Virus record (IMG/VR): IMGVR_UViG_3300022592_000004
Span: 1 to 63,735 of that record
From: a virus
Taxonomy: Duplodnaviria > Caudoviricetes
DNA length: 63,735 bases
Strand: one strand, 5' to 3'
Part shown: piece after piece, positions 8,071 through 28,143 of the stretch
How positions within the stretch are numbered: the first letter of the stretch is position 1
Layout of the letters: each line of letters begins with the position of its first letter
Translations under genes and position numbers: made by a program
Notes under the pieces: generated by a model
Database searches by the model: none
What the model was told of the DNA's origin: nothing
What the model saw: the letters and a program-made list of their open reading frames with translations, nothing else

Positions 8071-9131
8071 ATGTTAATCCAATCGGATGCAAGGGATATC
8101 CCGCTCAGATCAGAATGCGTTCAGCTGGTTGTTACGTCACCTCCCTACTGGGCCTTGAGAGTTTATCCGCACAAAGATCAGATCGGTCTCGAGCGGACGC
8201 CGCAGGAGTATGTGGCCGAGCTCGTGAAAGTCTTCCGCGAAGTCCGACGCGTTCTCCGGCCGGACGGAGTGCTTTTCATGTGCCTCGGCGACACCTACGC
8301 CACCGGCGCCGGCAAGGTGGGCGGCAGGCCGGGTGGCGGCCCTCGCGGGGAGAAGTGGCGCGGAGCGGGCCCTTACGATCAGGATCGCAAGAAGCGCTGT
8401 CCGCGGGGCCCCATGACCTCGCCGAATCGGATGCCGTTGCCCGGGCTGAAGCCGAAAGACCTAATAGGCATCCCCTGGCGCGCAGCATTGGCGCTTCAGG
8501 AAGACGGATGGTGGTTGCGTAGCGATATAATCTGGGAGAAGCCGAACCCGATCCCGGAGAGCGCCAAGGACAGAGTCTGCAGATCGCACGACTACATCTT
8601 CATGCTGTCAAAGTCCCGCCACTATTATTGGAACCGGGACGCCGTCAGAGAACCCCTGAGCGACGGGCCTCTTGGCGGCCGGCAGATGGCGGAAATGAGC
8701 GGCAAAACCGCAGCGCCGCGGAGAAAGGATTATCACGATGGCCGACTCGACAGATTCAGCGCTGGCAACGTGCCCAAGAAGCCGCCACTCGTCGGAGCTC
8801 ACGGCAGTCTTGCGCAGGACGGACAGGGAATGCGCATGCCCGGGAAATGGACAGCGCCAGGCGGCAGAAACGTGCGATCCGTGTGGACGATCGCCACGGA
8901 GCAGTATGGCGGAATCACTTTGCCGTGTTCCCTCGTCGACTCGCGGAGCGCTGCATTCTCCTCGCGAGCCGTCCTGGTGACCTGGTATTCGATCCCTTCG
9001 TGGGCTCCGGCACTACCGTGATGGCGGCGCAGAACCTCGGGCGCCGCGGGTGTGGCAGCGATTTAGCCTACCACGATCTGAGTCGCGAGAGGATCAACGG
9101 ACCTTTGTTTGCGGCGACGGTGAACCAATGA
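8071..9131 (+). pseudogene. N4-C/N6-A DNA methyltransferase (beta class) split by a frameshift near 8911
   Basis: VVTSPPYW, KDLIGIPW and IIWEKPNP in one frame; HFAVFP and FDPFVGSGTT in another frame. Confidence 0.85.
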
Positions 9132-13265: not shown

Positions 13266-14597
13266 ATGAGAGCGTTTCTGGTTGCTGGTCTGGCCTTTGG
13301 GGACGAGGGCAAGGGATCGATGGTGGATTTCCTCGTCCGCCATTACGGCGCCAAGCTTGTCGTGCGCTATAATGGTGGACCGCAGGCGGCTCATAACGTG
13401 GTGACCCCTGACGGCCAGCACCACACCTTTTCGCAATTCGGGTCCGGCAGCTTTGTTCCCGAGTGCCGGACCCTTCTCTACAAAACAATGCTCGTGGATC
13501 CCTATGCGATGCTCAACGAGGCGGAAGTCTGGGCCAAGAACCATCCTGAACTTCCCGGCCTACTCGGGCGGATCACGGTCGATCCGGGCTGTGTTGTGAT
13601 CACGCCCTGGCATGCGATGGCGAACAGAATTAAGGAAGAAGCGCTTGGAACCGCAAGGCACGGGTCCTGCGGGCTGGGGATAGGCGAATCTCGATCCGAT
13701 CAGGAAAACGGACTGTGGTTTCAGGTTTCCGACATTTTCTCCGATGCCGGCACATCGACGAGACTGCTCGCGGCGATAAAGGGGAAAAAGATTGAGGAGA
13801 TGCGCGAGCTCTCGAATGAGACCGATTATGGGCGCAAGATGCTTCGGCGGATGAAGGATGTCGATCCCCACGAATTGCTGTTCTTCTATCGTGAGAAATG
13901 GGCCCCAAGGATACAACTCGCAAACGTGATGGATTTTCTGCGAGGGTCTTGGCATGAGACCGTTGTGTTCGAGGGGTCGCAGGGAGTTCTCATAGATCAG
14001 GATCTTGGGTTTTTCCCCTACGTGACCTGGACGGACTGCACATTTGGAAACCTGCGCATTCTCCTTGCCTGCATCGCCAGATACGCTGAACTCGAGGTTG
14101 TTAAGATCGGCGTCACCCGGGCCTATTTCGTGCGCCATGGTCCTGGCCCGTTCATAACCGAGACGAGCAGCCACGGGTATCCCGAGAGGTATAATGCGAA
14201 CGGCCCGTGGCAGGGCCCCGTGCGGAAGGGGGATATTGATTTCGTCGCCCTGCGGTATGCGCTCAAGGCGATTGGCGGCGTGGATCGGCTTGCCCTGACG
14301 CACATGGATTCGATCAACAAATACGGGACCCAATATTGCGACGGGTATCGAGCGGAGCATATGGGTTCTCTGATCAAGGACATTGCCGGCGTTCAGCTGA
14401 CCATGCTCGATCAGTTCCAGCCTCACCTAAAATCCACCGTCAACATGGTCGAAACCGCCGAAGAGCAACTCGGAGTTCGAGTGGGCTACACATCATGGGG
14501 GCCAACCGCAAATGACAAATTGGTTGCGAAATCTGTTGAAGAAGAAATACTCTCCGTACCAGTGGGCACGAACTCACATGAGAAAAGTCGAGTGTGA
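13266..14597 (+). CDS. adenylosuccinate synthetase-like protein (divergent PurA family)
   Basis: GDEGKG, RYNGGPQAAHNV, HGSCGLGIGE, FEGSQGVLID, PYVT, RHGPGPF. Confidence 0.85.
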   Translation: MRAFLVAGLAFGDEGKGSMVDFLVRHYGAKLVVRYNGGPQAAHNVVTPDGQHHTFSQFGSGSFVPECRTLLYKTMLVDPYAMLNEAEVWAKNHPELPGLLGRITVDPGCVVITPWHAMANRIKEEALGTARHGSCGLGIGESRSDQENGLWFQVSDIFSDAGTSTRLLAAIKGKKIEEMRELSNETDYGRKMLRRMKDVDPHELLFFYREKWAPRIQLANVMDFLRGSWHETVVFEGSQGVLIDQDLGFFPYVTWTDCTFGNLRILLACIARYAELEVVKIGVTRAYFVRHGPGPFITETSSHGYPERYNANGPWQGPVRKGDIDFVALRYALKAIGGVDRLALTHMDSINKYGTQYCDGYRAEHMGSLIKDIAGVQLTMLDQFQPHLKSTVNMVETAEEQLGVRVGYTSWGPTANDKLVAKSVEEEILSVPVGTNSHEKSRV

Positions 14598-20089: not shown

Positions 20090-20093
20090 GATC

Positions 20094-20222
20094 GTTCCCT
20101 GGCACTGAACAGCTTACATGTTAGCTCATTTGGTAGAGCAACAGCTTTTCAAGCTGTGTGTGACCAGTTCGATTCTGGTACATATCCCCGAAAGGGGAAA
20201 CGCTGATCGACTTCCAGGGAAC
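20094..20222 (+). ncRNA. Y RNA-like unit 1; cargo is an unpermuted tRNA body (anticodon UUC) plus a GAAA hairpin
   Basis: stem GTTCCCTGG/CCAGGGAAC, CACTG, TACATG, CGACTT; D arm GCTC/GAGC, ACAGC-TTTTCAA-GCTGT, ACCAG-TTCGATT-CTGGT; no CCA. Confidence 0.75.
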
Positions 20223-20231
20223 ATAAAGTTT

Positions 20232-20319
20232 GGAGGAATGGCCGAGGGGTTGAAGGCGATGGTCCTGAAAACCATTATGGGGTGACTCATCGTGGGTTCA
20301 AATCCTACTTCCTCCGCCA
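20232..20319 (+). tRNA. tRNA-Ser(UGA)
   Basis: GGAGGAA/TTCCTCC acceptor, long variable arm, G73-CCA; loop CCTGAAA (C33). Confidence 0.85.
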
Positions 20320-20321
20320 AT

Positions 20322-20451
20322 CTTGGCGTCTACTGGAGTGCTTACATGGACTTGTAATCCAGAGGTTGGGAGTTCGAGTCTCTCACGGGACCTCGGTTCC
20401 GTTAGCTCAATTGGTAGAGCGCTTAGTTTAGCGCTCCGACTTGGCGCCAAG
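20322..20451 (+). ncRNA. Y RNA-like unit 2; permuted tRNA-Thr(UGU) mimic
   Basis: stem CTTGGCGTC/GGCGCCAAG; order anticodon arm (CTTGTAA), T arm, closed acceptor ACGGGAC-CTCG-GTTCCGT, D arm. Confidence 0.8.
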
Positions 20452-20468
20452 TAAATTCGAGGGTAAAC

Positions 20469-21044
20469 ATGGGCAGTGACGATCGTTTCTACCTGATGGA
20501 GATGCGCAACCGGCCGGTGAAGTATGGGGACATCGGATCGCTGATCAAGATCTGCGGGCTGGTGATCGGCGGCGCCGGAGAAGACAAAGCAATATTGATG
20601 CTCCCCGGCATGGACGCCCCAGCCGGCATATATCCCTCGAGGACCAAGGTATTGGAGTTGACCGTTGAGGAGTGGAGCGATTTCATCCGGAGATCCGACG
20701 ACCCCGAGATCCTGGTTGGGCCGGCAAGGATCTTCCAGCGCAAGGTGCGCTATGAGATCTCCGGCGCCATCCAGCAGAAGGTGTGGGCCGCGGATGGCTT
20801 TCAGTGCAGTTATTGTGGCGTTCGCATGGGGAATGCTCTCTTGACGATCGACCATTTCATTCCGCTCGAGCTGGGCGGAAAGAACGACGTGACGAACTAT
20901 CTGACGGCGTGCAAGAGATGCAACAAAGACAAGGGGTCACAGGATCCCTTTTTCTGGATCAAAGGGATGCAGGAAAAGCATCCTCTTAATTGCACGACCT
21001 ATGAAGTGTTCCTGGAATATCTGGAGCGCAGGATTGTGAAATGA
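20469..21044 (+). CDS. HNH endonuclease with an unknown N-terminal domain
   Basis: CSYCG...LTIDHFIPLELGGKNDVTNYLTACKRCNKDKG. Confidence 0.9.
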   Translation: MGSDDRFYLMEMRNRPVKYGDIGSLIKICGLVIGGAGEDKAILMLPGMDAPAGIYPSRTKVLELTVEEWSDFIRRSDDPEILVGPARIFQRKVRYEISGAIQQKVWAADGFQCSYCGVRMGNALLTIDHFIPLELGGKNDVTNYLTACKRCNKDKGSQDPFFWIKGMQEKHPLNCTTYEVFLEYLERRIVK

Positions 21045-21049
21045 GAGAT

Positions 21050-21208
21050 TTGGCTGTTACTGGATAGCTTACATGTCTGTGGGACCGGCGTTCCCGAAAG
21101 GGAGCATGAAGGTGAAAATCCTTCTCCCCCTGCCAACCTTTTACAGTATGGGGGGATGGCGGAACTATCATACGCACCGAAAAAGTTAGCTGACCGACTT
21201 ACAGCCAA
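21050..21208 (+). ncRNA. Y RNA-like unit 3; Leu-like tRNA mimic opened at the anticodon (YrlA-like topology)
   Basis: stem TTGGCTGT/ACAGCCAA; variable arm TTCCC-GAAA-GGGAG, T arm GAAGG/CCTTC, acceptor TCCCCCT/GGGGGGA, D arm GCG/CGC. Confidence 0.75.
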
Positions 21209-21218
21209 GATTGGTAAG

Positions 21219-21842
21219 ATGAAAATGAGAGTCTTTCTGGATGTCGGCGCACACATAGGGCAAACCCTCGAAGAGGTGATCAAGGAGGAATGGGGGTTTG
21301 ACCTTATCTACTCCTTTGAGCCCATGCCGGGGGAGTTTGCGAAGCTATCCGAAAAGTTCGGAAAACTTCGAAATGTCAGGCTGTTTAACTATGGGCTCCT
21401 GGACAGGACGGAAGAACTGCCGATGTATGGGGCCAACGACGGCATGGAGGCGACAGTCCTGCCGGACATGTCCACGATCCACCACCCGGAAAAGGTCACT
21501 ATGTGCCGCTTTGTCGAGGCGAGAGCCTTTATTGACTCGATCCCGCAGGAAGAGGGGATCATCCTAAAGTTGAACTGCGAGGGATCCGAGGTCGCGATTC
21601 TCGACAACCTGATCGACACGGGAAGGATCGGTCGCATTTTCTATGCCATGATAGACCCCGACTATCGGCACATGCCCCGCGGGATGGAGGAGATTCATCG
21701 TGTCCTGGATCGGTTAAAGGACGTGGGTTTTGATCGCTATTTTATGTGCGATGAGGTGATGATCGGTCCGACTCACCAAGAGAGGACGGCAAATTGGCTT
21801 AGAAAGATACCTTGGCCTGTTACTGGGAAAGGGTACATGTGA
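21219..21842 (+). CDS. FkbM-family SAM-dependent methyltransferase
   Basis: VFLDVGAHIG, SFEP, ILKLNCEGSE. Confidence 0.8.
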   Translation: MKMRVFLDVGAHIGQTLEEVIKEEWGFDLIYSFEPMPGEFAKLSEKFGKLRNVRLFNYGLLDRTEELPMYGANDGMEATVLPDMSTIHHPEKVTMCRFVEARAFIDSIPQEEGIILKLNCEGSEVAILDNLIDTGRIGRIFYAMIDPDYRHMPRGMEEIHRVLDRLKDVGFDRYFMCDEVMIGPTHQERTANWLRKIPWPVTGKGYM

Positions 21843-21936
21843 AGCGGATCGCATCCGCCCCCCTCCACAAAAGCACAGTATGGGGGGGCTCCCAGGTGGG
21901 AGACGCAATGAAACCTTTCGACGACTTACAGGCCAG
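21812..21936 (+). ncRNA. Y RNA-like unit 4; degenerate T-arm/acceptor/hairpin cargo
   Basis: stem TGGCCTGT/ACAGGCCA, TACTG, AAAGG/CCTTT, TACATG, CGACTT. Confidence 0.7.
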
Positions 21937-21943
21937 AGAGATT

Positions 21944-22086
21944 CTGGCTGCACACTGATAAAGGATACATGTTAATAAAGGTTCGAGTCCTTTATCCCCC
22001 ACATCTATGGGGGATTGGCCGAATGGTATAGGCGACAGACTTAAAATCTGTTTAACAGCAAAAACCTTTATCGACTTTGCAGCCAG
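21944..22086 (+). ncRNA. Y RNA-like unit 5; permuted tRNA-Leu(UAA) mimic opened at the variable arm
   Basis: stem CTGGCTGCA/TGCAGCCAG; T arm AAAGG-TTCGAGT-CCTTT, acceptor ATCCCCC/GGGGGAT, D arm, ACAGA-CTTAAAA-TCTGT. Confidence 0.8.
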
Positions 22087-22093
22087 GTAGAAT

Positions 22094-22234
22094 TTGGCCT
22101 GTCACGCCATGGGGCGTTACATGACTGGCTCCGGAAGGCCCGCGTCGCGGGGGCCTGCCAGTCTCCGCGACACAGGAGCAATCCTGGCTGGCTTCGGTCG
22201 GGCATTCGTAAAGCACATGCGACTTACAGGCCAA
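22094..22234 (+). ncRNA. Y RNA-like unit 6; GC-rich non-tRNA cargo
   Basis: stem TTGGCCTGT/ACAGGCCAA, TACATG, CGACTT; hairpins GACTGGC/GCCAGTC and CAGG/CCTG. Confidence 0.7.
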
Positions 22235-22241
22235 GAAATTA

Positions 22242-22375
22242 TGGCGGTCACTGAGAACGGTTACATGGTTAAGACAATCGTTTGAAAAACGATCAATCTG
22301 GGTTCGAATCCCGGGCCCCCCGCCTCGAGGGGGGGTTCGTCAAAGAGCAACACAACCGTAGTCGACTTACCGCCA
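22242..22375 (+). ncRNA. Y RNA-like unit 7; permuted tRNA mimic (anticodon GAA) opened in the D loop
   Basis: stem TGGCGGT/ACCGCCA; GGTTAA-GAC, ATCGT-TTGAAAA-ACGAT, CTGGG-TTCGAAT-CCCGG, GCCCCCC/GGGGGGT, TC-GTC. Confidence 0.8.
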
Positions 22376-22382
22376 GTTAGGA

Positions 22383-22459
22383 TTGTGGGGATCGCGAGAA
22401 GACTCTACGGTTTCCATCGCACGTAGACCCACGTTAAATCGGGGTAACGATCCCCACGA
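22383..22459 (+). ncRNA. unclassified structured RNA within the array
   Basis: GTGGGGATCG/CGATCCCCAC stem enclosing CTACG/CGTAG and CCC/GGG hairpins; lacks scaffold motifs. Confidence 0.5.
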
Positions 22460-22465
22460 AAAGAT

Positions 22466-22567
22466 TCGCTGGCACTGATCAGGGTACATGCGTTTACCTT
22501 CTAAGTAAAAGTGCAGCTCCCGGTCTTTGCGGTCCGGGAGTTAAGTGACCTGGTCGACTTCCAGCGA
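22466..22567 (+). ncRNA. Y RNA-like unit 8; isolated Arg(UCU) anticodon stem-loop plus a hairpin
   Basis: stem TCGCTGG/CCAGCGA, CACTG, TACATG, CGACTT; TTTAC-CTTCTAA-GTAAA; CTCCCGG/CCGGGAG. Confidence 0.7.
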
Positions 22568-22588
22568 TTTAATAAAGGGAGAACCGTC

Positions 22589-24061
22589 ATGGCAGAAGCA
22601 ACGAAGATCACGAAGAATCAGATCATCTCTGAACTGTCGAAATCGCCCCACGGCGACCTGAAGGAATACGTTCCTACAGGAAAGGTCGCTGCGTCCGCGG
22701 AGCCGGAGTTTTTTGCGCACCTCATCGCCTGGGACCGAACCAACGGCCAGGTAAGAGACGCGAAGGCCGCCCTGCCTGTGGTGTCTCTGAGCGTGGCCGA
22801 CTTCCCATCCGAGCTGGTGGAGAACTCACTGGCGCACCTTGCCAAGCTGAATCCCCGCGAGCTCCTCAAGGCATATCGCTTCGCGATCGCGATCAAGACG
22901 CCGGGGCATGGTAGGCGCCTGAAAAAGTTGGTTGCCGCCTATCTTCGGGAAAAGGAAGGCAACGGATGGGATCGAATCGCTATCCAACATCGTCACGTGT
23001 TGAAAGAATTGTATGCCCTTATTCACATCAAGCCGGGTCCTCATGCCGATGCGGTCTTGTTCAAGGGCCAGAGGCCCCCCAACTCGATTTTCGACCTGGT
23101 TGCCAGGCTGAAGGACATGAGTCCCCAGGAAGCAGCGGGGACCATCCTCGAGCGCAAGATTCCCTTTCTTATTGCGACCGGGGCGCTCGGAGCGAAGGCA
23201 AAAGAGCCAGACCTAGTTCTTGCGCTCATTGAGCGCATGAGCCCGACAGAAGTCGTCACCAACACCAAGATGTTGGAGAGGCTGGGCGTCAAGGATGTGC
23301 CTGCGCTCCGGGCGGCATTCGAGTCTGCTCTGGAGCGGGCGAGCAAGTCAAAAAAGACTACCTTCAAGGCCAGCGTGGCCATCGATGCGCTCGACGATGA
23401 CAAATTGAAGGCAAAACTCTCCGGCGTACAGGAGAAGCAGATTCAGGCTCTCGGCGGAGTCGAGGGCAACTGGCTGGTCTTGGGTGATAAGTCCGGATCC
23501 ATGCAGAACACGATTGAGATCGCACGCCAGGTTGCCGCCACTCTCGCCAAGATGGCCTTGGGACGCGTGATCCTGAGCTTCTTCGATATAACGCCCGAGA
23601 CCATTGACGTCACCAACCTGACCTACGACGAGATCAAGGATAGAACGAAGAGGATCACAGCCGCCGGCGGAACTTCGATCGGATGCGGTCTCATGGCTAT
23701 TCTCGATCGCAAGGTGGAAGTCGACGGCATCGCCATCATCTCGGATGCGCAGGAGAATACCCCTCCGGTGTTCGTGAATGCCTATAAGGAGTATTCAAAG
23801 TTTGCGGATAAAGAAGTGCCGGTCTATCTCTACCGCTGCGCGTATGAAGCCCAGGGTTGGGGGGACGTCGACCTGGCAAAGGCCATGAAGCAACATGGGT
23901 TTGATTTGCAGGAGTTCGATCTGAGAAAGGGAGTCGACTTTTATTCGCTCCCAAACCTTGTCAAAACCATGCGGACCAATCGGTATAGTCTGATCGATGA
24001 GATCCTGGCCACGCCGCTTCTGAGCCTGAGACAGGCGTTTCAGGAGACGGTGCAAGATTAG
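22589..24061 (+). CDS. divergent Ro60/TROVE-like protein with C-terminal vWA domain
   Basis: PEFFAHLIAW, GRRLKKLVAAY and LKELYALIHIKP (cf. Ro60 HKDLLRLSHLKP); MIDAS DKSGSM, GGTS, IISDAQEN; AAGGGAG RBS. Confidence 0.75.
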   Translation: MAEATKITKNQIISELSKSPHGDLKEYVPTGKVAASAEPEFFAHLIAWDRTNGQVRDAKAALPVVSLSVADFPSELVENSLAHLAKLNPRELLKAYRFAIAIKTPGHGRRLKKLVAAYLREKEGNGWDRIAIQHRHVLKELYALIHIKPGPHADAVLFKGQRPPNSIFDLVARLKDMSPQEAAGTILERKIPFLIATGALGAKAKEPDLVLALIERMSPTEVVTNTKMLERLGVKDVPALRAAFESALERASKSKKTTFKASVAIDALDDDKLKAKLSGVQEKQIQALGGVEGNWLVLGDKSGSMQNTIEIARQVAATLAKMALGRVILSFFDITPETIDVTNLTYDEIKDRTKRITAAGGTSIGCGLMAILDRKVEVDGIAIISDAQENTPPVFVNAYKEYSKFADKEVPVYLYRCAYEAQGWGDVDLAKAMKQHGFDLQEFDLRKGVDFYSLPNLVKTMRTNRYSLIDEILATPLLSLRQAFQETVQD

Positions 24062-24071
24062 GAGATCGATC

Positions 24072-24608
24072 ATGCTTCCATGTCCTAAATGCGGCAGCCC
24101 CATGAAATGGGAGAAGATCGAATGTAGCGCTCATCTTGCGTGCACATCGGGCTGTTTATGGATCGATTGCCCGAGTGAGCATGTAGCCGTCAGTCAATAC
24201 ATAAGATATGTCGGCGAGGATCGAGCTACGAAACTTGGAGTGACACTGAGATTGAGTTCGTTTCCAAGAAGCTATAAATCTAAGAAAGGAGGTAAGGCCA
24301 TGTTTATTATCGACGAGATTCGCCGGTTCAATACCGACGGCACTTCGCTGGAAGACCTGGTCGCGATGTCTGCGTCTGCCCGGGCTATCCAGTCCGAGTT
24401 TGCTGCGGTCAGCGTGGAAGAGCCCGAGTGGCTCAATCCCAAGATCCGCGAGATCCGCCGGGAGATCGCTACTCGGCAGGCTGATCGTATCGAGAGGCTG
24501 ATCCGGGAGAAGAAGTCCCGGCTCGAAGCTCTGCAGCCAGAAGAGCAAAAGCGCGAGGCTCTCAAGCTTGAGATCGACCGGCTGGAGAAGAAACTTGCCG
24601 ACCAGTAA
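24072..24608 (+). CDS. Zn-ribbon N-terminus in frame with a coiled-coil protein that has its own start at 24300
   Basis: CPKC...CTSGC; AAAGGAGGT RBS before ATG 24300. Confidence 0.65.
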   Translation: MLPCPKCGSPMKWEKIECSAHLACTSGCLWIDCPSEHVAVSQYIRYVGEDRATKLGVTLRLSSFPRSYKSKKGGKAMFIIDEIRRFNTDGTSLEDLVAMSASARAIQSEFAAVSVEEPEWLNPKIREIRREIATRQADRIERLIREKKSRLEALQPEEQKREALKLEIDRLEKKLADQ

Positions 24609-26250: not shown

Positions 26251-28143
26251 ATGGAAGGCTTACCGCGCCGGCAGCCCGATCTCCAGGAGGCACTCGACGA
26301 GCTTGACAACAAGCTCTATGAGGAAGCGGGCGGAGATCCGCAAAAAGCCTTTGCGCTGCTCACCGAGACGGAATTGGAATTCGTCGAGGGAGAGATCCAG
26401 AAGTGCCTCGAAAGCCCGCGATACTACCTCGAAAACTACCACTTCATCCGCACGAAGAAACTCGAACTGATCCCCCTGTGGCCGTTTTGGGACAGCCAGG
26501 AGATGTTTCTCGAGGTCTTCGAACGTCAGCACAAGCTCGGCGAGCTGATCCGAATCATCGTTCTGAAGGCCCGGCAGTTGGGGCTGACAACCATCAGCGT
26601 CGCGCTCATGTGCTGGCTGGTCTTCCTCCATCCGAGGGCGCACGTCCTGGAGATGGCCGACGAAGAAGACCGCACTTTCGTCAACTTCGATATGGCCCGT
26701 ACCGCCCACGAATATCTGCCCTGGTTCATGAAACCAGAAAAGCGCTACGACGCCCGCGGCCGCCTGCTCGGGTTCGACCGCCCGAAGGCTGAGGAGAGGG
26801 ATAGGAGTAGTGGCCTGCAGAGCATGATCTATTTTGAGTCAGCGAACCAGCCTTCTGGCGCCGCATACTCAAAGGCTCTCTACGGAGTGCATCTCGCCGA
26901 GGTTGCGCGATTCAGGCAGGATGACTCAATCACAGAGGGAATCTACGGATCCCTGGGCAACATCCCGGGAACGATCGGGATCATGGAATCGACAGCTCGA
27001 GGCCGCGGCGGCTTGTGGCACAGGCTGTGCAAGGCGGCCGAGAGTGGCGACATGTCCTGGGAGTTCGTGTTCATCGAATGGTTCCGGGAGCCGGGCTATA
27101 CGATTTCCGTGCCGAGGAACTTCAAACGTGATGCGGACGATCTGGCCCTCGTGAAAAAAGTTATGAGGCATAGTCAGGTTGCGCTTACCGATGGACAGCT
27201 CGCCTGGCGCCGCAAGATGCAGCGCGACTTCGAGAAGACTTCCGGCGACTCTGAGAAATTCAAGCAGGAATATCCTGTGACGCCGGTGGAAGCCTTCATC
27301 GCCAGCGGTCGCACGGCGTTCAGCAAAAAGCGCCTTCAGACGATGATTACCAAATTCTGCCAGGATCCCATTTGGCGCGGCCAGATCGAACTGAACAAAG
27401 ATGACAAGACCTTCAAAATCATGCGGCTGATGGACGGGGAGTTCGAAGTCTGGGAGTTCCCGCATGCTGGCTGGACCTATTACCTCGGCGCGGATCCGTC
27501 GATGGGGGTCGAGGGAGGGGATCCGGCCTGCGCACAGGTCTTGGCTGTTCCCGAGAATCTGAATCATCCCTTGCGCCAGGTCGCCAGATGGCATGGGTAC
27601 GTAGGACCCGGGCGATTTGCGAGGATCATCGCGGCGATCGGTTATATGTATAACACGGCCGAGATCGCGCCCGAGTGCAACACCATCACGAGCGTAGCCT
27701 CCGATCTAGTAAAGGTTCTCCTGTATCCGAAATGGTATCGATGGATGCGTGAGGACAAGGCAAAGAACGCGTTCTCGAATTTCATTGGCTGGTTGACGAC
27801 CTTCCGCAACAGGAACGAGCTCATCGGGCGCTTCCGACAGGCACTCAATGAATGGACGGTCGTGATTCGGTCAGAAAAAGACGTCGACGAGATGTTTGAC
27901 TTCGTCGAGGTAGAAGAAGGAACGGAGAGATACGAAGCAAGGTCCGGCACTCATGACGATGCCACGATGGCTATCATGATCACTTACTACTGCGCAACCC
28001 AACTGCGTCCGCGGCTGGCTGAACCGCCAGATGACGAGAAGCCGCCCGAGGGCCAAGACTTTCAAAACACCGACTATTCCCCCGCATACGACAAAAACAT
28101 CCAAAATACGGATCAGGGAGTGTCGGATTTTTACATGCTCTAG
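26251..28143 (+). CDS. terL: terminase large subunit
   Basis: Walker A KARQLGLTT, Walker B HLAEVA, ESTARG; nuclease LGADPS, ECN, HDDAT. Confidence 0.92.
   Translation: MEGLPRRQPDLQEALDELDNKLYEEAGGDPQKAFALLTETELEFVEGEIQKCLESPRYYLENYHFIRTKKLELIPLWPFWDSQEMFLEVFERQHKLGELIRIIVLKARQLGLTTISVALMCWLVFLHPRAHVLEMADEEDRTFVNFDMARTAHEYLPWFMKPEKRYDARGRLLGFDRPKAEERDRSSGLQSMIYFESANQPSGAAYSKALYGVHLAEVARFRQDDSITEGIYGSLGNIPGTIGIMESTARGRGGLWHRLCKAAESGDMSWEFVFIEWFREPGYTISVPRNFKRDADDLALVKKVMRHSQVALTDGQLAWRRKMQRDFEKTSGDSEKFKQEYPVTPVEAFIASGRTAFSKKRLQTMITKFCQDPIWRGQIELNKDDKTFKIMRLMDGEFEVWEFPHAGWTYYLGADPSMGVEGGDPACAQVLAVPENLNHPLRQVARWHGYVGPGRFARIIAAIGYMYNTAEIAPECNTITSVASDLVKVLLYPKWYRWMREDKAKNAFSNFIGWLTTFRNRNELIGRFRQALNEWTVVIRSEKDVDEMFDFVEVEEGTERYEARSGTHDDATMAIMITYYCATQLRPRLAEPPDDEKPPEGQDFQNTDYSPAYDKNIQNTDQGVSDFYML

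Follow-up and report, generated by a model that had tools for sequence, protein, structure and literature searches.

A probable Y-RNA gene array with tRNA-derived heads grafted at different points beside a divergent phage Ro60 gene

The question raised by a locus in the viral record IMGVR_UViG_3300022592_000004 (Duplodnaviria; Caudoviricetes) is why one and the same RNA stem should carry tRNA-like bodies that are attached to it in different ways. Positions 1 to 63,735 of the record were analysed (63,735 nt, referred to as the window). Eight small RNA units with one common split-stem scaffold lie on its plus strand at 20094-22567, and their cargos vary in length between 64 and 119 nt. An initial annotation had described here a tRNA cloverleaf opened at five different positions and located it at 20114-22545; the location was correct and the true limits are slightly wider. 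We consider it probable that the region consists of eight Y-RNA genes (YrlA/YrlB-like) which belong to the adjacent gene for a divergent phage homologue of Ro60.

All units follow the same order in 5'-to-3' direction: the first strand of an outer stem (P1), YACTG(A/G), a strand of an inner stem (P2), (T)TACATG, the cargo, the returning P2 strand, CGACTT and the second strand of the outer stem (P1'). TACATG is found at 20115, 20343, 21070, 21834, 21966, 22118, 22262 and 22485, each time with CGACTT 70-125 nt downstream. Between 20000 and 22700 all eight copies of either motif are on the plus strand and correctly paired up, and neither motif is present on the minus strand of this segment. In minimum free energy (MFE) folds the 5' and 3' ends of all eight units pair as a closing stem which comprises P1, an internal loop of 3 nt (YAC) facing 4 nt (ACTT), and P2, with the cargo on top. 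P1 has 7-9 bp and differs in sequence between units, its flanks pairing in 8/8 cases; P2 has 6-8 bp and begins with U.G followed by G-C.

Conservation of this scaffold was assessed in a related set of 47 viral loci that encode a homologue of the 490-aa Ro60-like protein. In 17 aligned short units 91.2% of the cells pair in the specified structure, compared with 65.6% in shuffles (0 of 500 as high) and with at most 44% in slid controls. Changes on both sides were observed in 13 of the 15 pairs, and all 17 units have the U.G with which P2 begins. A covariance model (R1) was derived from this alignment; its training sequences match by construction, while the remaining matches are independent. R1 was run on both strands of the window and of 41 of the 47 loci (553 kb), L005, L024, L025, L034, L036 and L043 being left out as apparent duplicates. 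It yielded 133 matches at E<=1 and 123 at E<=0.01, every one of them on the strand of the Ro60 gene, and all of the latter (123/123) are located upstream of that gene, across 37 loci. L017, L031, L032 and L033 gave no R1 match. Seven of the eight window units were recovered (unit 6 was missed), and R1 detected nothing else in 63.7 kb. Motif detectors, which were stricter and missed units 4, 6 or whole loci, were replaced by R1; the units detected by them were upstream of the Ro60 start in 84 of 84 cases, with about equal amounts of sequence searched on either side. Over the 123 R1 matches, in an alignment that was fitted to the model, TACAYG, ACTG and CGACT hardly vary, and opposite TACATG lies a stretch rich in A. 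The window units are all situated 21-2495 nt upstream of the open reading frame (ORF) for the Ro60-like protein, and the array ends 21 nt before it.

A stem of this kind could be a mere processing or punctuation signal within a polycistronic tRNA-like transcript, recognised for example by RNase III or RNase E, with the adjacency to Ro60 being incidental. The short gaps of 7-8 nt between units 4 to 7 would agree with such a signal, as would the ordinary tRNA-Ser and the two ORFs that are interleaved with the units, and a search for promoter- or terminator-like excess inside the array revealed nothing above shuffles. This explanation is very unlikely given that all 123 R1 matches share the strand and the upstream position relative to Ro60 and that none occurs elsewhere in the window. 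The helices are short and interrupted, and the invariant single-stranded motifs together with the U.G pair point to sequence-specific protein recognition. Moreover, the full-length YrlA model of Rfam (RF02553) aligns to unit 2 including its stems (49 bits, E 2.7e-9). With Rfam YrlA scores of 57.3, 42.7 and 35 bits in relatives in addition to that of unit 2, the scaffold is therefore read as the closing stem of Y RNAs, which had been left unexplained in the initial annotation. In five of the eight units the TTAC of TTACATG is the counterpart of the YUAY motif in YrlA. No Rfam family supports a ribozyme or intron reading of the scaffold.

Two features of the scaffold concern possible contacts between units. 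The P1 strands of units 4 and 6 are identical (GGCCTGT / ACAGGCC; 21814-21820 / 21928-21934 and 22096-22102 / 22226-22232), which would also allow a helix between the 5' strand of unit 4 and the 3' strand of unit 6, with unit 5 enclosed. The CATG core of the invariant TACATG (e.g. 20116-20120) is self-complementary and could let units or their ribonucleoproteins (RNPs) pair; a dimer is reported for the Thermus phage Ro60-Yrl2 complex.

The 490-aa product is identified as a Ro60 homologue by its predicted fold alone. In Pfam the TROVE domain (PF05731) was not found in it and the only match was a weak one to VWA_CoxE; no Ro60 was retrieved among PDB sequences, either by phmmer or by a 30-sequence profile of the protein's family. 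In PHROGs its C-terminal part matches phrog_850, annotated as 'RNA-binding protein'. An AlphaFold (AF2) model was obtained with a pLDDT of 83.7, and the Foldseek matches at ranks 1-13, which extend over the full length of the model, are all Ro60/TROVE structures (E 1.6e-11 to 1.4e-6, TM 0.56-0.67). The best of them is Ro60 of the Thermus phage phiLo (E 1.6e-11, TM 0.64-0.67) at 16-17% sequence identity; further matches include human and Xenopus Ro60 and Rsr of Deinococcus radiodurans. The D-x-S-x-S (MIDAS) motif is formed by D300, S302 and S304, which are invariant in 30 homologues. Among 7998 candidates scored, 1106 proteins qualified as homologues at E<=0.001, and a TROVE PF05731 annotation was found for none of the 120 homologues among the matches listed. 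The sources label homologues of this clade 'hypothetical protein', and many are encoded on contigs of ~100-110 kb. It thus appears that a large phage Ro60 clade, comprising over 1100 homologues that are mostly encoded on ~100-kb contigs and presumably having an RNA recognition motif of its own, is not seen by domain databases.

For known Y RNAs, such a neighbourhood is typical. PMC4201824 places Y RNAs on the strand of Ro60 at distances of up to 4 kb, describes them as mimics of tRNA and substrates of tRNA enzymes, and reports that YrlA-type Y RNAs are modified by TruB and DusA and that YrlA of Mycobacterium smegmatis stays bound to Ro60 when RNase P opens it and CCA is added. A phage Ro60 is reported to bind two upstream Y-like RNAs and host PNPase (PMC12135203, seen in excerpt), and canonical YrlA, which 'lacks the anticodon loop', is described as resembling a tRNA permuted at the anticodon (10.1101/312249, likewise in excerpt).

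The tRNA-likeness of the cargos was determined by cutting each of them at 24 x 17 = 408 end combinations, circularising the products and scoring them with ARAGORN. The best scores were 117.5 for unit 1 (Glu, ttc), 121.4 for unit 2 (Thr, tgt), 129.1 for unit 5 (Leu, taa) and 114.7 for unit 7 (Phe, gaa). Unit 3 reached 103.3, its 'anticodon' being an artefact of the artificial junction. The remaining units scored 93.2 (unit 4), 90.0 (unit 6; 2/408 trims) and 91.0 (unit 8; 2/408 trims). When the identical procedure was applied to 150 random window segments (151 entries including an empty parser entry), no score exceeded 94.4; 0/151 were at or above 95 and 8/151 at or above 90. Units 1, 2, 3, 5 and 7 exceed all random segments and are thus tRNA-like well beyond chance, which is not the case for units 4, 6 and 8. 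Accordingly, the expectation that re-permuted cargos score as tRNA was borne out in five of the eight units, at 103-129.

Units 2, 3, 5 and 7 score as tRNA only once permuted. Their heads consist of a T arm, a loop-closed acceptor and a D arm, and their acceptor stems are perfect 7-bp helices closed by loops. Unit 1 is an open cloverleaf in normal order (ARAGORN 111.3 in linear form; Rfam tRNA 48.6 bits, gathering score 29). The anticodon loops of units 1, 2, 5 and 7 are 7 nt long, position 33 being T and position 37 being A, and the T loops of these units read TTCGATT, TTCGAGT, TTCGAGT and TTCGAAT, as expected from the annotated retention of 7-nt anticodon loops and TTCGA T loops. Five anticodons had been proposed, of which UUC, UGU, UAA and GAA were recovered. 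The fifth, UCU, was assigned to unit 8, where one hairpin consists of 5 bp and a 7-nt loop containing TCT. This hairpin was rejected as a tRNA remnant: its score is within the random range and the orthologous last units of L001-L004 lack it, so that there are four solid anticodons and not five.

Mapping of the junctions reproduced, unit by unit, the five graft sites that had been claimed. In unit 1 the scaffold joins at the acceptor end, TACATG serving as the acceptor 5' strand with 5 of 7 pairs formed. In unit 2 the junction is flanked by the D arm and the anticodon stem (position 26/27), the latter having just 4 bp. In unit 3 it joins inside the anticodon arm and no anticodon loop is present; replacement of this loop by the Y stem is seen only there and, topologically, in unit 4, while units 1, 2, 5 and 7 keep their 7-nt loop. 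In unit 5 the scaffold continues the variable arm, and the stem of this Leu-type unit occupies the place where class II tRNAs bear their long arm. In unit 7 it joins in the D loop, which is split. Unit 4, in which three hairpins follow in cloverleaf-like order, is devoid of T-loop and D-loop consensus and its ARAGORN score is within the random range; a tmRNA identity was considered for it and dismissed, the weak Rfam matches of 16.6 and 15 bits being noise. The cargo of unit 6 is a GC-rich multi-hairpin structure without likeness to tRNA, and unit 6 had no Rfam match at E<=10. Coordinates of the units and of further features are listed in Table 1.

Table 1. Location of the array units, their parts and neighbouring features in the window, and of loop-remnant modules in related loci.
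Feature	Position	Strand	Details
Unit 1	20094..20222	+	P1 20094-20102 / 20214-20222; R1 51.9 bits
Unit 1, tRNA-like body in normal order	20115-20186	+	anticodon TTC 20148-20150
tRNA-Ser(TGA)	20232..20319	+	ordinary class II tRNA without scaffold, between units 1 and 2; Rfam 53.4 bits
Unit 2, permuted tRNA-like body	20322..20451	+	YrlA 49 bits; R1 41.1 bits
Unit 2, parts			anticodon hairpin 20347-20362 (TGT 20353-20355); T arm 20368-20384; D loop 20409-20416
Unit 2, acceptor			3' strand 20385-20391; 4-nt loop; 5' strand 20395-20401
HNH-domain ORF	20469..21044	+	191 aa; within array between units 2 and 3
Unit 3, canonical YrlA topology	21050..21208	+	R1 45.3 bits
Unit 3, parts			T arm 21108-21124 (loop TGAAAAT); closed acceptor 21125-21156 (loop begins GCCA); D loop 21162-21172; long variable hairpin within 21089-21107
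FkbM-type methyltransferase ORF	21222..21842	+	within array between units 3 and 4
Unit 4	21813..21935	+	three hairpins, cloverleaf-like order; R1 31.2 bits
Unit 5, permuted tRNA-Leu-like body	21944..22086	+	ARAGORN 129.1; Rfam tRNA 27.9 bits; R1 28.2 bits
Unit 5, parts			T arm 21977-21993; D loop 22021-22030; anticodon arm 22035-22051 (TAA 22042-22044)
Unit 5, acceptor			3' strand 21994-22000; loop; 5' strand 22009-22015
Unit 6	22094..22234	+	P1, TACATG and CGACTT present; 5' loop and P2 irregular; missed by R1
Unit 7, permuted tRNA-Phe-like body	22242..22375	+	Rfam tRNA 31.5 bits (model 9-63); R1 34.4 bits
Unit 7, parts			anticodon arm 22277-22293 (GAA 22284-22286); T arm 22298-22314; D loop split 22342-22347 / 22268-22272
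Unit 7, acceptor			3' strand 22315-22321; loop; 5' strand 22330-22336
Spacer between units 7 and 8	22376..22465	+	90 nt; long hairpin, MFE -33.5 kcal/mol
Unit 8, short Y RNA, YrlB-like	22466..22567	+	two hairpins; R1 59.2 bits
Divergent Ro60 homologue (predicted fold)	22589..24061	+	490 aa; TROVE-like helical ring and vWA domain
178-aa ORF, conserved module member	24072..24608	+	directly after Ro60; cysteine-rich N-terminus
Modules with loop remnants tag, tga or gta in related loci	L001:4990-5132, L002:5032-5187, L003:5260-5413, L004:5361-5508, L013:5008-5125		anticodon-less, YrlA type

Graft points were further surveyed by circularisation and ARAGORN in 124 units (the 123 R1 matches and unit 6). 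A score of at least 100 was obtained for 58 of them, in 27 loci, and for none of the 28 units of <=100 nt. In these 58 units the graft is at the acceptor end (26), within the anticodon arm as in the canonical YrlA topology (16), in the D arm (6), in the variable region (6), at the D/anticodon junction (3) or at positions 8-9 (1); the T arm was never used (0). No locus other than the window combines five graft classes, the others having one to three. Structures of two classes were also predicted de novo with RNAalifold. For seven variable-arm units P1, P2, the T arm, the closed acceptor, the D arm and the anticodon arm were obtained, with compensatory change in 23 of 34 pairs; for nine units of the unit-2 type compensatory change was seen in 22 of 33 pairs. 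In the alignment of the latter, TACATG is followed in most units by a hairpin of 3-5 bp with a 7-nt loop CTTNNNA, the stems covarying and the triplets differing.

A full-text search retrieved no paper on Y RNAs with a tRNA head grafted at several cloverleaf sites or with full anticodon loops; the supplements of PMC4201824 (YrlA of 22 phages), which were outside this search, might show anticodon-arm variants. The varied graft points add a new form to the tRNA-mimicking Y RNAs already known, and the window is the richest example among the examined loci. They amount to a natural graft scan, in which one presumed docking stem meets five or more points of tRNA attachment in 58 units of 27 loci and never the T arm. 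Such a scan bears on what the tRNA-like heads of Y RNAs do in bacteria, a question since 2014. The consistent sparing of the T arm predicts that a partner would read the T arm and the elbow, and has a bearing on whether the exposed anticodon loop matters.

Modules of relatives show further features of their loops. Triplets that would read stop codons (tta, cta, tca) are found in module loops at L003:3818-3940, L012:5059-5190, L021:4869-5006 and L004:5624-5762. Anticodon-less modules of the YrlA type with long variable hairpins carry the loop remnants tag, tga and gta, corresponding to the three families that make up class II among bacterial tRNAs (Leu, Ser and Tyr). From their sequences these remnants suggest that real tRNAs may have been captured repeatedly. 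Two further modules with long variable hairpins (L040:5575 and unit 3 of the window) do not fit the class II remnant pattern. In L022:1-13470, ~30 ordinary tRNA genes on the same strand surround the Ro60/Y-RNA locus and are contiguous with the Y-RNA array.

The order of 3' half, closed acceptor loop and 5' half in units 2, 3, 5 and 7 is also that of permuted tRNA genes as found in the red alga Cyanidioschyzon and some archaea, which likewise have a closed acceptor and breaks at several cloverleaf sites. If the units were genes of this type, they would be excised at the stem, circularised and re-opened. Maturation of algal and archaeal permuted tRNAs requires a bulge-helix-bulge motif, a splicing endonuclease and a ligase, whereas the junction here is an internal loop of 3 x 4 nt between P1 and P2 and the host is bacterial. 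The scaffold also bears cargos other than tRNA (units 4, 6 and 8; the 28 short units), and the RtcB ligase was detected in 0/5 related genomes. The available part of 10.1101/312249 raises this possibility for YrlA and states that no splicing endonuclease is known in bacteria. Altogether, we regard maturation as permuted tRNA genes as very improbable. tmRNA, including the two-piece permuted kind, resembles the units in having permuted gene forms and a long helix that replaces one arm of its tRNA-like domain; it differs in that it has a free CCA end, is charged and lacks an anticodon loop.

A close counterpart is YrlA (RF02553) of Salmonella, Mycobacterium and mycobacteriophages. It is likewise encoded a few kb from Ro60 on the same strand and has an end-paired stem, YUAY at its base and a head composed of T arm, closed acceptor stem and D arm; unit 3 has the same topology. 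In contrast to YrlA, the stem leaves at the acceptor end, at 26/27, at the variable arm and at the D loop in units 1, 2, 5 and 7, which keep their anticodon loop, YACTG...TACATG...CGACTT is present instead of the GNCGAA motif, and eight units are found where one or two are usually described. In D. radiodurans several Y RNAs (Yrn1/Yrn2) are encoded upstream of rsr and co-transcribed with a real tRNA; Yrn1 likewise has a T arm and an 'anticodon arm', but the loop of the latter has 6 nt and a full D arm is lacking (PMC4201824, in the available part, which describes no systematic variation of graft points). The Thermus phage phiLo, whose Ro60 is the best structural match, also encodes Y-like RNAs (Yrl1/Yrl2; PDB 9KOP, 9L5Y) just upstream of the protein gene; it differs in that its two RNAs are chosen by a CGAA motif, and the available text of PMC12135203 makes no mention of a tRNA module.

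By analogy with other Y RNAs, the closing stem of the units is a putative docking site for Ro60, and each unit would give rise to a separate stable RNA. This RNA would close through P1, the conserved internal loop (5' YAC, 3' ACTT, then U.G and G-C) and P2, and the conserved TACATG/A-rich junction above P2 would bear an effector module. In five units the module would be a tRNA-derived L-shaped body to which the stem is grafted at a different peripheral point each time, the T arm never being interrupted and a canonical anticodon loop being exposed in four. With tRNA heads grafted at differing points onto a Ro60-docking stem, the RNPs would offer tRNA bodies that differ in identity and orientation to host or phage factors which recognise tRNA, with Ro60 tethered to these factors or bodies. 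Candidate factors are modification enzymes, RNase P, tRNA-targeting nucleases and PNPase as in other Ro60 RNPs. If the heads are indeed chargeable, or decoys for tRNA-targeting defence nucleases, Ro60 RNPs would be linked to translation or to phage counter-defence.

Several observations weigh against a Y-RNA array with tRNA-derived heads. The sequencing runs listed as containing 20090-22570 are DNA runs of four studies, with no RNA run among them. The published Ro60-contact motif GNCGAAN0-1G is found in 0/8 unit stems, and the sole G.CGAA match among the units is the D arm of unit 5. The Rfam gathering score for YrlA (69 bits) is reached by no unit, unit 2 being the sole match. Units 4, 6 and 8 are without a tRNA-like head. 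The ARAGORN-based counts and the R1 alignment were partly shaped by the models with which units were found. In 10 of the 58 tRNA-scoring units, unit 3 of the window among them, the acceptor 3' strand is immediately followed by NCCA, compared with ~1.6% per position for CCA. This enrichment and the perfect 7-bp acceptor helices of the permuted classes would be compatible with opening and charging of the RNAs as well.

The last two points are those expected if the units were unusual tRNA precursors which are opened by RNase P, gain CCA, are aminoacylated and used in translation. RNase P would cut the closed acceptor loop or, in acceptor-end units, within TACATG, and the 3' end would be trimmed to or given CCA; the resulting one- or two-piece tRNA would be held by the scaffold stem, with Ro60 acting as chaperone or protector. 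Such precursors would also account for the canonical loops (U33 in 23/24 and R37 in 22/24, features favoured by ARAGORN), for grafts at the variable arm and the D loop, the sites at which natural tRNAs vary in length, and for anticodons (UUC, UGU, UAA, GAA) that differ from those of the plain tRNAs of the window (Ser-UGA, Pro-UGG, His-GUG). The cut by RNase P and the receipt of CCA reported in vivo for M. smegmatis YrlA (excerpts of PMC4201824) point in the same direction. Use in translation is nonetheless unlikely in view of the details of the bodies. The acceptor of unit 1, with two of its seven pairs missing, starts with U, and one TACATG-derived 5' strand is used in all acceptor-end units whatever the anticodon; the constraint that TACATG places on these often imperfect acceptor stems fits recognition by enzymes. 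A34 starts 5 of the 24 seven-nt anticodon loops, which fits recognition rather than decoding. Modules of relatives with Ser anticodons have no long variable arm but variable loops of 4-5 nt, and the short anticodon stem of unit 2 likewise argues against decoding. TTA, the codon read by the best-scoring module (Leu-UAA), accounts for 17 of 9046 codons in 22 large ORFs. Neither RtcB (PF01139) nor the CCA-adding enzyme (PF01743) was found in five near-complete related genomes, a search that did not extend to other RNA ligase families; host enzymes could substitute.

The initial annotation had favoured recognition by tRNA-binding enzymes over decoding. Recognition agrees with what is published on YrlA (PMC4201824, in part), while decoding after processing keeps the support given above. 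A further reading, by which this phage lineage has joined a transferable Ro60-docking stem to genuine tRNAs wherever the L shape tolerates it and some of the RNAs are opened by RNase P at the closed acceptor loop, expose CCA and are aminoacylated, appears decidedly unlikely. If charged, such RNAs would be two-piece chargeable tRNAs tethered by Ro60, which could read rare or reassigned codons under protection from the anticodon nucleases of the host, or bring Ro60 to EF-Tu or the ribosome.

In addition to Ro60 and the Y-RNA-like units, other members of the locus were compared with the related set. A homologue of the 178-aa ORF is present directly downstream of Ro60 in 40/47 loci; no Pfam or PHROG family was assigned to this ORF, which may be a partner of the Ro60 module. 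Homologues of the HNH ORF were found upstream of Ro60 in 26/47 loci at 32-72% identity (50-72% in 24/26), so that this ORF is no sporadic insertion. It may encode a packaging-associated HNH protein. A large terminase gene is located at 26251-28143, ~2 kb downstream of Ro60. The FkbM-type methyltransferase ORF occurs only in the window (0/47 related loci), and its last 30 nt including the stop codon are overlapped by the 5' scaffold strand of unit 4. The spacer between units 7 and 8 contains no scaffold motifs and had no Rfam match. A Pfam survey of 20 further ORFs of the neighbourhood revealed no genes for RNA repair or tRNA processing. In the 22 large plus-strand ORFs AGA and AGG together make up 162/472 (35%) of the Arg codons in a genome of 56% GC, and TTA is the rarest Leu codon (2%). 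Auxiliary genes in the window code for adenylosuccinate synthetase (13266-14597; E 5e-55), a protein with a Lar restriction-alleviation domain (867-2171) and an N6/N4 DNA methylase (8071-9021).

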